Below, in pieces: positions 2,156 to 7,517 of a stretch of 64,000 nt of DNA. The first letter of the stretch is position 1; each line of letters opens with the position of its first letter. The notes beneath the pieces were generated by a model. The model saw only the letters and a program-made list of their open reading frames with translations. It searched no databases and had not been told where the DNA came from. The DNA comes from Nibricoccus sp. (GTDB lineage: Bacteria > Verrucomicrobiota > Verrucomicrobiia > Opitutales > Opitutaceae). The position numbers were made by a program, and so were the translations under genes. Where the stretch lies: NCBI GenBank assembly GCA_047602425.1, contig JASGHG010000001.1:1344001-1408000 (forward strand), in the 5' to 3' direction.

Positions 2156-4330
2156 ATGACACGGCGCGCGAAAAAAATCCTGACCCCTCCCTCCGAGGAA
2201 CGTGTCGTGGAGCCGCGCAATACCGCGAGTCCCATCGTACCTGATTCCGCCAAGCCAGTTAAAGCGGCCTATTTCAATCGCGAACTCAGCTGGCTGGCCT
2301 TCGATCGACGCGTCCTCGAACAAGCCCAAAATCCCAAAGTCCCGCTGTTGGAGCGCATCAAGTTCCTCGCCATCGTCAGTTCCAATCTCGACGAATTTTT
2401 TGAAATCCGCGTCGCCGGCATCATCCAGCAGGTCGACTCCGACGTCACCGAATCGAGCATCGATGGACTCGGCCCGCGCGAGCAACTTCGCCGCATTCAC
2501 TCGGTCGTCGCTTCGTTGGTGGAGGACCAATATCAGTGTTGGCACGAGCAACTCGTCCCCGCTCTGGCCGAGGAGAACATACTCATCAAAACCGCCAAAG
2601 ATCTGACCAAGTCGGAACTGGCTTGGGTGCAGACGTATTTTTCGGAACAGGTCTACCCAGTGCTTACGCCGCTCGCACTCGATCAGTCGCATCCATTTCC
2701 CCAATTGGGCAACAAGACGCTCAATGTGGTCGTTTCGCTAGATAACCCTGAAACGTCAGAGGCCGAGAAAGCGGTCGCGCTTCTGCCCGTGCCCCGCATC
2801 CTTCCGCGGCTCGTCGCCATCGATCCCACCGCCGAGGGGCCGCAACGCTTCATCTTCCTCACCGAAATCATCAAGCTCTGCGCCGGCGAACTTTTCCCGG
2901 GTTACAAAATTCTCGGCGCCCACGCCTTCCGCGTCACCCGCAATAGCGACCTCTACATCGATGAGGAAGAAGCGGCCAATCTCCTCCAAAAAATCGAGGA
3001 GGAACTCCGCAATCTTCGTCGCGGCGCCGCCGTGCGCTTAGAGATAGAAGATGGTGTGGACGACAAAATCTTCGCCACCCTCTGCGAGCATCTCGATCTC
3101 TCGCACGAGTACGTCTTCCGCCTGAACGGGCCGATCAATCTCCTCCGGATCATGAGCCTGACGGAAATTCAGCGGCCCGATCTCAAGTACCCGCCTTTCA
3201 CGCCGGTCAATTGCACGCTACTCAAGCAAACCGAACGTATCTTCGACACCGTGCGCCAGCAGGACGTGCTGCTCCACCACCCGTACGATTCGTTCACACC
3301 GGTCGTGGATTTTGTCGAACAGGCCGCGCGCGATCCACAAGTCTTCGCCATCAAGCAAACGCTCTACCGCACCAGCGGCGATTCGCCCATCGTGCGCGCC
3401 CTCATCGAAGCCTCGCACAATGGCAAACAGGTCACCGCCTTGGTCGAGCTCAAGGCCCGTTTCGACGAAGCCAACAACATCCAGTGGGCTCGTCAGCTTG
3501 AGGAAGCTGGCGTACACGTGGTGTATGGACTGGTTGGGCACAAGACACATTGCAAATGCAGTCTCGTCGTCCGCCGCGAAGGCAAGGGAATGAAACGCTA
3601 CGCCCACCTCGGCACGGGCAATTACAACCCCCGCACCGCCAAGCTCTACACAGACCTGAGCTGCTTCACCGCCCGCGACGAGATTACTTCCGACGTCGCC
3701 AATCTTTTTAACTCGCTCACCGGCCTCAGTCGCGCGCCTGAATTCGAAAATCTCCTCGTCGCCCCGTTCAACCTGCACCGTCGCATCCAGGAATTGATCC
3801 AGCGCGAAACCGACAACGCCGCCGCCGGCCGCCCGGCCCGGATCATGGCGAAAATGAATTCGCTCGTCGACCGCGTCACCATCGACAACCTCTACGCCGC
3901 GTCGCAGGCCGGCGTAAAAATCGACCTCATCGTGCGTGGCATCTGTTGCCTGGTTCCCGGTGTGCGCGGGCTCAGCGAAAACATCCGCGTGCGCAGCATC
4001 GTCGGTCGTTTTCTCGAACATGCCCGCGCTTTCTATTTTGAAAACGATGGCGGCGGCGGACCTCGCATTTACCTCGGCAGCGCGGACTGGATGCCTCGCA
4101 ATTTTTTCCGCCGCATCGAAGTGGTCTTTCCCGTGCTCGATGCCGGCTTGCGTCGCTGGGTCAGCCAGGAACTTTTTGGCATCGAATTCCAGGACAACGT
4201 CGACGCCCGCGAACTGCATGCCAACGGCGCGTATCTTCCCGTCGCGCGTTCCTCGACGCAGCCTTCGTTTTCCACGCAAAACTACTTTGTCGCCGCCAGC
4301 GGCGAACGTTTGCGCAACAGTCTGGTTTGA
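2156..4330 (+). CDS. ppk1: Polyphosphate kinase 1
   Basis: [60 protein letters not shown]. Confidence 0.97.
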
Positions 4331-4374
4331 CCAAATGATAGGGCTGGCAGCGGCAAATAAGGACCGCGATGGAA

Positions 4375-4797
4375 TCAGTTTTTCAGCACGGTCTTTTCCA
4401 CCCGCTTTACTGAAACGAACTTGGCGCGGAAAAGCTCATCCAAAACCTCGCGAGCGGCATTGGGAATACGCTTCACTAGTTCGTCAAGCGATGGCAGCGG
4501 AGTATCAGGCGCGCGTTCATCGTCGGGCGCGCTCCCGTTTGCGACCATCGCTCCGGTTGGCGCGGAACCTTCGGGCCAGACAAATCCTTCTTCGTCGGGA
4601 GGCGCACCATTTACTTCATTGGACTGGTTTGGCTCAGCCTTCGCCGTAGCCTCAGTCTCGGACTCTTCTTCTTCCACCCCTTGACCGCCAGCTTCCGATG
4701 TTTGGCTTCCCGTTTCCGGCCTTTGGTTCCCAGCGCCCGGCTTCTGCTCAGCCGCGATGGCGGTCCGCAATCTCAATTCCAATTCAGCAATCAGGTC
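4375..4797 (-). CDS. Probable C-terminal part of DnaX tau (linker plus domain-V-like end), reached by a -1 shift from dnaX
   Basis: The -1 frame is open from the A10 run ([11 protein letters not shown]...) with only a TTG as independent start; acidic/Pro linker, then LDELVKRIP...[18 protein letters not shown] resembling tau C-termini. Confidence 0.65.
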
Positions 4798-5945
4798 TTT
4801 TTTTTTTCGCCGTCGGCCGCCGAATCCGGGGCTTCCTCAGCCAGGGCGGAGAGTTCCTTGATCAAGCTGTCGATCGCGCGTGCGCGGCTGGCTTCGACAG
4901 CTTTGAGGAGTGTGACTTCGAAATTAATTTTCTCCGAAAGGCCAAGCTTCACGCTGCCTTCGCCTTCGCGGAGACCGTCGAGCAAACGCGTCAATTGCTC
5001 GGTCGTCATCGAGATATTCCCGAGTTTGTCGCTATGACCGCCCTTGGCGATCGCGTCGAGCAAAGCTTGCCGAACCAGCGCCTGGAGGTCAGTGAGCAGA
5101 CGCACCAGGTCACGGCCGTTCTCGTCGCAATCGTCAACGATTTCGACGATCTTCTGGTGATCGCCTGCGGCCAGGGCGCCGGCGAGCGCGGCGATTTTTT
5201 CGGCAGCCACCAAGCCATAGACGTCGAGGACGTCGGGCTCGTCGATTTCGGTGCCGCAGAAAGAAATCATCTGGTCGAAAATCGATTGGGCGTCGCGCAT
5301 GCCGCCGTCGGCCATGCGAGCGATGCAGGCGAGCGCGGCGTCGGTGACTTTTATTTTTTCCTCGGTCGCGATCTGCTTCAGTCGTTGCACGATCAATTCC
5401 GCCGAGATCGGCTTCAGGTCGAAGCGCTGGCAACGCGAGATGATGGTCGGCAGCACCTTTTGCACGTCAGTCGTCGCGAAAACGAATTTCACGTGCGGCG
5501 GCGGCTCTTCCAGAGTTTTGAGCAGCGCGTTAAAGGCCGCCGTCGAAAGCATGTGCACTTCGTCGATGATGTAGACCTTGAACTTGCCCTGAGTCGGCGC
5601 GTAGCGGACGTCGTCGCGTAGATCGCGGATTTGATCGACGGAGTTGTTGGAAGCGCCGTCGATTTCGATCACGTCCATCGAAGTGCCGTCGGCAATGGCT
5701 TTGACCACCGGGTCGTTTGGATCGAAGTTTGCGTTCGGGCCGTTCGTGCAATTGAGCGCTTTGGCGAAAATTCGAGCTGTCGAGGTCTTGCCCGTGCCGC
5801 GCGGACCGACAAAGAGGTACGCGTGCGCAATGCGGTTGCGCACGATGGCATTTTTTAGAGTCCGCATCACGTGGTCCTGCCCAACGACGTCATCGAACGT
5901 CTGGGGACGCCATTTACGGGCTATGACTTGGTAGGTTGCGGACAT
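4791..5945 (-). CDS. dnaX: DNA polymerase III subunit gamma/tau (0-frame product 384 aa, gamma-sized)
   Basis: [56 protein letters not shown]. Confidence 0.97.
4797..4807 (-). other. Slippery site: A10 run ending in A_AAA_AAG, just upstream of the dnaX stop
   Basis: Minus strand reads GAA AAA AAA AAG ACC TGA; T10 at 4798-4807 on the plus strand. Confidence 0.7.
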
Positions 5946-5958
5946 GCGGACTATAAAA

Positions 5959-6046
5959 AGCTGAAAGACTGAAGGACTGACGGACTGAAAAATCCAGCCT
6001 GCGTTTCGCAGATCGAAAAAAATTTAGCCTTCCAGTTTTTCAGCCT
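5959..6046. repeat. Octamer tandem repeats (GACTGAAR-like x4) with inverted counterparts, forming an imperfect hairpin between ffs and dnaX
   Basis: AGCTGAAA GACTGAAG GACTGACG GACTGAAA at 5959-5990; TTTAGCCT TCCAGTTT TTCAGCCT near 6023-6046. Confidence 0.55.
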
Positions 6047-6060
6047 TTGGAAAAAAAAGT

Positions 6061-6156
6061 GGCCAGGCACTCCACGGCACTGGGAGAACGTCGTTGCCGT
6101 TGCTACCTTCCGGTCCTGGCGGAGTTCACGCGTCTGCCCATGCATGGCACCTGGCC
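6061..6156 (-). ncRNA. ffs: Signal recognition particle RNA (small, 4.5S type)
   Basis: Minus strand has the conserved domain IV CAGGACCGGAAGGTAGCA; ends GGCCAGGT...GCCTGGCC pair; followed by a U8 tract; classic ffs-dnaX synteny. Confidence 0.93.
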
Positions 6157-6299
6157 GAGGCGAACAGTGCCCCGCTTCCGCGCCCCGGCAACAACTATTT
6201 TCAAGCTTATAACCGCCGTGGGCTTTGGAGTTTCGCCCACAAGCGCTTAAATTATGCAACCCCGTCAGGTTGCCAGCGTCATTTCAACTTCCCGCTTCG

Positions 6300-7517
6300 A
6301 TGAAAACTTCCATCTTCATCGCCTTTTTCGCCGCCACTGCGCTCTCCGCCTTCGGTGCCGATGCCACCGCCGGCAAAACCACGCCGCCGGAGAAAGCCAC
6401 CGCCTCGCTCAAGGGTAAAATCTATCCGGACGAACATAAAACCTTCGTCGCGCCCGAGTCCGGATTGGAAGTCATCCAACTCACGTCCGACCCCGCCGAT
6501 GACGCACATCTCTATTTTACCGGCGACGGTTTCGTGCCCGATGACCATGGACTCGTCTTCACCTCCAAGCGCACCGGCCGTTGGAATCTTTTCTACCTGA
6601 ATCTGGAAACCTTCCAGTTTGTACAACTCACAGACGGGAAAAAAATCAGCGGGACTGGCGCCGTCGTCTCGCCCGCCACCATGGAGGCGTATTTCCGCGA
6701 TGGCTCGGAAATCAAAGCCGTGCACCTCAAAACGCTCGCCGAGCGCACCATCACAACCGTGCCCAAGGGCTACAACGTCTCCACCCTTTCGGTCACGGTC
6801 GATGGCCGCTCCCTCGCCTACTCGATCCAGGAAGACATTCCGATCACATCAAAAACCGACAAAATCTATTCCGACATGGCGGAGCGGTTTCAAAAACGCC
6901 CTTGGAGCGCCGTTGTCACGGGCCGTACGGATGGCACCAACTGGCGTGAATCCATTCGCATCAAGAAATGGCTCAGCCACACGCTCATCAATCCGCTCAA
7001 CGAAAACATCATTCTCTATTGCCACGAAGGCTCGTGGGGCGACGTCGAACAACGCCTGTGGCTCATCAGCTCTGGCGGCCGCGACAATCATCCGCTTCGC
7101 CGTGAGGAAACGCCCGCGGTGAAGATTGGCCACGAATTCTGGTTTCGCGACGGCATCCATGTCGGGTATCAGGTGCAAGTCCCCGGGGAACCAAAATCCA
7201 TCGGCATCGCCGATATTCTTGACGGTTCCTATGTCGAACATCCGGCGCCCTACAATGACAGCCACGTGCAGGCCAACAGCACGGGCGAAACGTTCGTTGG
7301 CGACGGGTCCGAAAAGGAGCCGTACATCAATCTCTACCAACTCGCCAACGGCAAACTCACCGGCCGCCACCTCTGGAAGCATGAAGGCTCCTTCTCGCAA
7401 CAGCACTGGCATCCGCATCCACGCTTCTCGGCCGACGACAAATATGTGCTCTTTACCAGCTCACGCGGTGGCAATGGCAATGTCTACCTGATCAAGCTGG
7501 AAGAGCCAAAAAAGTAG
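6300..7517 (+). CDS. Oligogalacturonate lyase family (PL22/Ogl-like) beta-propeller with signal peptide
   Basis: LYFT, LYCHEG..QRLW, GHEFW, QQHWHPHPRFSADDKYVLFTS; N-terminal MKTSIFIAFFAATALSAFG. Confidence 0.8.
   Translation: MKTSIFIAFFAATALSAFGADATAGKTTPPEKATASLKGKIYPDEHKTFVAPESGLEVIQLTSDPADDAHLYFTGDGFVPDDHGLVFTSKRTGRWNLFYLNLETFQFVQLTDGKKISGTGAVVSPATMEAYFRDGSEIKAVHLKTLAERTITTVPKGYNVSTLSVTVDGRSLAYSIQEDIPITSKTDKIYSDMAERFQKRPWSAVVTGRTDGTNWRESIRIKKWLSHTLINPLNENIILYCHEGSWGDVEQRLWLISSGGRDNHPLRREETPAVKIGHEFWFRDGIHVGYQVQVPGEPKSIGIADILDGSYVEHPAPYNDSHVQANSTGETFVGDGSEKEPYINLYQLANGKLTGRHLWKHEGSFSQQHWHPHPRFSADDKYVLFTSSRGGNGNVYLIKLEEPKK

Follow-up and report, generated by a model that had tools for sequence, protein, structure and literature searches.

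The analysed window is a stretch of 64,000 nucleotides of the Nibricoccus sp. genome (contig JASGHG010000001.1, positions 1,344,001 to 1,408,000), and all coordinates below refer to it. On its minus strand, a 384-aa ORF (4791..5945) was identified as dnaX by TIGR02397 (429.5 bits, cut-off 250), with PF13177, PF22608 and PF12169 covering the clamp-loader domains I-III, and corresponds to a gamma-like default product. No second dnaX was found in the Nibricoccus genome. The 3' end of the gene reads GAA AAA AAA AAG ACC TGA on the minus strand, and includes a run of ten A's (4798..4807, minus strand), here regarded as the recoding site, whose final six A's form with G4797 an in-frame A_AAA_AAG heptamer. 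The zero-frame stop TGA (4791..4793, minus strand) lies one codon past the Lys codons, just beyond the run, so that a one-base slip at the run is needed for the synthesis of tau. The -1 frame contains no stop from 14 codons ahead of the zero-frame stop onwards and extends for 140 codons beyond the A run (4375..4797, minus strand), closing at TGA 4377-4375. The third (+1) frame is closed by a TGA at 4784..4786 (minus strand), giving products of 386/387 aa.

When run-length variants of dnaX were translated, A11 led to a 523-aa protein and A8 and A14 also led to the long form, while A9, A12 and A13 gave 385-387 aa; owing to the third-frame stop, A9 and A12 transcripts (386/387 aa) would thus also give a gamma-length product. 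The 384-aa dnaX, the A10 run, the A_AAA_AAG heptamer, the 140-codon -1 frame and the fusion of about 523 aa, all described in the initial annotation, were confirmed on the sequence. The A10 run is unique, being the only A/T run of length 10 in the 5,158,924-base genome, where runs of length 9 and 8 occur 11 and 196 times, respectively.

As to the surroundings of the gene, a polyphosphate kinase 1 gene (TIGR03705, 2156-4330, plus strand) is convergent with the end of the tau frame, at a distance of 44 bases, and a small SRP RNA (RF00169, 65.7 bits; 6058-6156, minus strand) is located immediately upstream of dnaX. A weak terminator-like site between the SRP RNA and dnaX (6012-5998) was not above chance, and no sigma-70-like promoter was found in 4250-6350.

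Conservation of the run was evaluated on 157 dnaX loci of the order Opitutales, one per genome and with the Nibricoccus locus included. The sample was made up of 27 loci (27 of 31 genomes matched), 30 loci representing one further genus each, drawn from the family genomes that matched dnaX (244 of 251), and 100 loci chosen from 137 matched genomes out of 141, those omitted being mostly already sampled or small genomes. Ten A's were found in 110 loci, nine in 26, eleven in 4, eight in 3 and seven in 1, with no run in the remaining 13. A run of A8-11 lies at codons 364-394 in 143/157 loci, and none of the 157 has an A run of at least 9 within codons 1-345; the run at dnaX codons 364-394 is conserved far beyond chance.

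Within the family Opitutaceae (45 loci), a -1 shift is needed in 43 loci (36 with A10 and 7 with A9); of the other two, one is in frame with A11 (L051) and one is cut at a contig end. The phase xxA AAA AAA AA(G/C) and the -1 direction are therefore nearly fixed within the family (43/45). The alignment of Opitutaceae loci that the initial annotation had proposed as a check thus reveals a conserved poly-A run and frame break, and the reversed gamma/tau logic that it had advanced, in which gamma is the unshifted product, gains comparative support. Among 40 loci from other orders or classes of the phylum, in which short ORFs had been deliberately picked, the -1/A10 layout was observed in four (L178, L180-L182), an in-frame A9 at codons 379-428 in eight (L169, L170, L175, L187, L190, L194, L195 and L198) and a contig-end cut in two; L170 has two runs, A9 and A10, with 27 codons between them.

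Many members of the order with small genomes (0.8-1.8 Mb; L020, L025-L027, L151, L154-L157) lack an A run of at least 8, and their tau is short or its tail cannot be recognised; two of about 1 Mb (L152 and L153) retain A9 and the -1 layout. In two genomes a second dnaX match was observed: in G036 (G036:C18:947841-948137) it is a divergent copy, and in G362 (G362:C3:1506189-1509035) the two copies lie in tandem and score identically; these may be binning or assembly artefacts.

The tau extension starts, immediately past the run, with a conserved short helix, which is followed by a variable acidic/Pro-rich linker and a C-terminal module of 46 aa (4378..4515, minus strand). The start of the -1 frame (4756-4797, minus strand; L002-L049) encodes an amphipathic helix with a consensus like DLI-x-x-LE-x-RL, present in most family members and absent from several A9 and divergent ones. 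The module, of which the genome has a single copy, is modelled as two helices (mean pLDDT 88), and its alignment (A1) comprises 88 sequences; in 52 loci it is the in-frame C-terminus of DnaX itself. Neither the extension nor the module had a match in Pfam, NCBIfam, PDB sequences or Foldseek PDB; the one strong PDB-sequence match was discarded, being a designed repeat protein. Sequence links of the module to the E. coli tail are weak. Compared with the DnaX tails of other classes (30 tails, 28 from single ORFs) the module gave an E of 5.5e-4 and a probability of 30%, and in this bridging alignment the other-class tails matched the E. coli tail with an E of 0.015; a direct hhalign comparison of the module with the tail of E. 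coli fell short of significance (E 0.14). In this last alignment the conserved Leu and Phe of the module fall on E. coli L627 and F631, residues of tau whose mutation is reported to weaken alpha binding (PMC1888804).

A complex was then modelled between the module and residues 930-1213 of the genome's own DnaE, along with three controls. The score was 0.73, versus 0.01 for the best control, and passed a mark that is reached by 116/157 solved pairs and 2/215 mismatched ones, with contacts agreeing at 84% or more, partner pLDDT of at least 78 and a site at DnaE residues 1125-1195. The module is thus predicted to bind the C-terminal domain of DnaE (alpha), a prediction that the complex model supports along with the alignments and the in-frame fusions. 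Since tau and alpha are a textbook pair, resemblance to structures already solved may lie behind this pass. The genome also encodes a further and more divergent member of the DnaE family (L159, G000:C1:4312382-4315411; 557 versus 1288 bits), possibly an error-prone DnaE2. The view of the initial annotation that the -1 frame encodes the tau C-terminus is hence sustained as regards a tau-like identity, by the 52 fusions and the DnaE model. Pfam, NCBIfam and PDB returned no match in sequence or fold; the likeness observed is that of a short alpha-binding-like tail, and kinship with E. coli domain V as a folded unit would be conjectural.

The frame in which tau is encoded relative to the run was assigned by an iterated HMM of the C-terminal module, from which all counts reported here derive; a tighter, family-seeded HMM left unassigned 22 of the loci that the iterated one assigned, and reversed no assignment. 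Among 136 assigned loci with a run, the tau frame is -1 in 76, 0 in 43 and +1 in 17. Outside the family (112 loci) the corresponding figures are 33 loci with -1, 17 with +1, 42 in frame with a run and 9 in frame without one; no frame was assigned in the remaining 11 of the 112, of which six combine A10 with a +1 frame that stays open over a long stretch. Between the run and the module, the alternative frame contains no stop in any of the 93 split loci. Four multi-genome clades (support 0.98-1.0) have the +1 polarity, and the assigned loci most closely related to them are either in frame or -1; one of these clades includes a single-contig genome (G369, L104).

Parsimony on a FastTree phylogeny of the DnaX core of the 136 loci requires at least 16 changes of polarity, versus at least 44 (mean 51) when labels are shuffled, so that polarity appears to be inherited in clades and yet to have switched many times. 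Most surveyed loci come from fragmented assemblies and the deep nodes of the tree are poorly supported. Five isolated changes (A11 in L051, L109, L119 and L140; A10 in L108) may be one-base errors, and with the weak deep nodes they prevent 16 from being taken as a firm count. On balance we favour the view that within this order the A10 tract has kept its length and place while tau has moved repeatedly between the -1, 0 and +1 frames, several clades being +1. If true, such free flipping would imply that slippage supplies each of the three frames well enough for the choice of the "default" subunit to be almost neutral, or else a tunable setting for the tau:gamma ratio. Neither a +1 polarity at the junction of gamma and tau nor three-frame flipping was found described in the literature searched, in which subscription journals are largely absent.

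Taken together, we consider the site to be a programmed recoding site through which one dnaX gene would supply both clamp-loader subunits by RNA-polymerase slippage, a reading to which we give a probability of about three in four. RNA polymerase would slip on the A10/T10 tract, generating mRNAs of differing run length; on templated A10, as well as on A9 or A12 messages, translation would stop within few codons and yield gamma (384-387 aa), while A11 (or A8, A14) messages would lead into the -1 frame and yield a tau of about 523 aa, whose C-terminal 46-aa module would bind the C-terminal domain of DnaE. Both RNA polymerase as the slipping agent and the tau:gamma ratio are here what we infer. 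Antonov et al. 2013 (PMC3711429) take shifts in both directions among orthologues as diagnostic of transcriptional realignment, and by that token the loci of the order, which shift both ways, point to slippage. Slippage on an A9 run has been experimentally established in Thermus (as reported in PMC1088944 and PMC5009743).

Slippage would also send ribosomes into both non-tau frames, both of which should then close early. The third frame is in fact closed within 8 codons in 40/43 of the family -1 loci (9.4 expected), 29/33 of the other -1 loci (10.1 expected) and 15/17 of the +1 loci (2.5 expected), and both off-frames are closed within 10 codons in 31/42 of the in-frame loci outside the family (5.5 expected). 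These expectations are drawn from linker positions, whose DNA differs in composition, and, kin not being independent, the enrichments are not to be read as p-values.

The most serious alternative is that ribosomes produce most of the tau through programmed -1 frameshifting at A_AAA_AAA / A_AAA_AAG, as in E. coli with the wiring reversed, a mechanism that may also add to slippage. It is consistent with the in-frame A_AAA_AAG of the Nibricoccus locus and of 37/43 family -1 loci (versus only 10/33 of the -1 loci outside the family) and with the -1 direction of 43/45 family loci; a phase, a direction and a heptamer so fixed would suit ribosomal -1 shifting as well, and count against slippage as the sole route. 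Moreover, in the 2016 review (PMC5009743) the reversed cases are described in terms of ribosomal frameshifting and E. coli-like stimulators are attributed, from unpublished data, to Chlorobium phaeobacteroides, and a bare dnaX heptamer is reported to shift at 14% in vitro (bioRxiv 10.1101/2025.10.02.679949).

However, no conserved Shine-Dalgarno (SD) stimulator was found among the 43 family loci (pairing of -6 kcal/mol or stronger in 12/43, median control percentile 0.37), nor any conserved 3' hairpin (z below -2 in 3/43), the values for the Nibricoccus site being -5.0 kcal/mol for SD pairing and z +0.44 for downstream folding, in agreement with the absence of SD and stem-loop stimulators noted in the initial annotation. 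In addition, ARAGORN predicted one CUU and two UUU tRNA-Lys genes in the genome, and the shiftiness of the E. coli site is ascribed to its sole tRNA-Lys (PMC5009743). The same run serves the +1 and 0 polarities in relatives, third-frame stops are enriched, and ten A's are kept although the heptamer needs six or seven. The three polarities, the third-frame stops, the lack of a conserved SD or hairpin and the tRNA-Lys(CUU) lead us to favour slippage, the preference already expressed in the initial annotation, and to regard ribosomal shifting as an improbable main source of tau.

It could also be argued that the downstream frame is no extension of dnaX but a small gene of its own, reached by translational coupling from a CTG over the TGA or from a downstream TTG, so that tau would be split in two proteins. 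A CTG does overlap the stop in the -1 frame in 46/76 of the -1 loci, and gene callers do list such frames as stand-alone proteins (39-190 aa among the best 150 matches). Nonetheless, the overlapping codon is CTA, GTA or TTA in 28/76 of these loci, an aligned TTG occurs in 10/43 family loci and 16/43 frames contain no ATG whatever, so that no start codon is conserved, a separate gene becomes highly unlikely, and the earlier observation that the segment has no convincing independent start holds. This reading, which leaves the A run unexplained, is also opposed by the 52 loci that carry the module as an in-frame fusion and by the 93/93 split loci with no stop between run and module.

Homopolymers are, on the other hand, typical sites of phase variation (PMC3711429), and A11 in-frame variants occur at 4/157 loci, as would suit slipped-strand changes of the tract at the DNA level by which cells switch between tau-on and gamma-only states. 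Against this stand the exact A10 of 110/157 loci and the presence in the genome of a single dnaX and a single module copy; since in E. coli the tau tail is required for alpha binding (PMC1888804), a gamma-only state should not be viable, and we hold phase variation for just as implausible as a separate gene. Finally, an assembly error hiding a true A11 and a continuous dnaX, which the in-frame A11 of L051 might suggest, is the least credible explanation, since the -1 break is common to 43/45 separately assembled family loci and occurs in both same-genus relatives with a dnaX match, as well as in the single-contig genomes G004, G007, G039 and G052, and the same frame is kept by A9 variants. Reads of one DNA run (0.05 share) matched as fragments only, 36/45 of them less than 90% alike, and do not bear on the run length of the Nibricoccus strain. 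These last three readings were accordingly rejected, on start-codon, run-conservation and family-break evidence respectively.

With slippage at the A10 run as the preferred reading, the cell would rely on recoding for an essential subunit of its replisome. Gene callers detach the C-terminus of this subunit and list it as a small hypothetical protein; among representative proteins, 772 match the module at E of 0.001 or less, and the best 150 are all of 39-190 aa. The three natural polarities would offer a ready series for weighing slippage against ribosomal shifting and for assessing the tolerated tau:gamma ratio. No experimental test of the two-ORF dnaX layout with tau made by recoding was found in the portions of the literature surveyed.

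Among known systems, transcriptional slippage at dnaX of Thermus thermophilus was reportedly described by Larsen et al. in 2000. With it the Nibricoccus gene shares an A run at the gamma/tau junction and nearby stops in both non-tau frames, and exactly the Thermus thermophilus layout is seen in the 43 run-bearing loci that have tau in frame; in Thermus, as reported, the run is A9 and tau lies in the templated frame, whereas in Nibricoccus it is A10 and the templated frame gives gamma. Like E. coli dnaX with its -1 frameshifting, the Nibricoccus gene has A_AAA_AAG, two products and an alpha-binding C-terminal tail, predicted in our case, but it differs in the opposite gamma/tau logic, in the lack of a conserved SD or stem-loop, in a second tRNA-Lys and in a 140-aa extension for which searches of Pfam, PDB and folds returned no match to E. 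coli domains IV-V.

For Blochmannia, too, transcriptional slippage at a poly-A tract has been put forward as the route to tau (Williams & Wernegreen 2010, PMC3017870); there the break, as described, is a rescued frameshift of a reduced genome, downstream of the gamma site and within the tau-only region, unlike that of Nibricoccus, which is the gamma/tau switch itself. The closest precedent is found in Antonov et al. 2013 (NAR 41:6514, PMC3711429), who reported two-ORF dnaX in 12 genera (17 genes, all with -1 shifts and nine with A10) and proposed transcriptional realignment; such genes were reviewed again in 2016 (PMC5009743). As in the genes there described, the Nibricoccus ORFs are adjacent, with a -1 transition, an A10 and a stop straight after the site, a conserved poly-A run (7-10 in that set) at the transition and a second ORF corresponding to the tau C-terminus. 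The Nibricoccus gamma/tau recoding site is therefore real, conserved and of the kind published in 2013, and the caution in the initial annotation that the layout may already be known was well placed. The text of that study names Chlorobi members only, and four Verrucomicrobia genomes belong to its set, so that the Nibricoccus lineage may already be among its genes. The one feature for which we found no earlier description is the apparent repeated change of the tau frame at an A10 that stays in place, which would be the best comparative argument for slippage: unlike the 17 genes of that set, all reported as -1, the Opitutales show the -1, 0 and +1 polarities.
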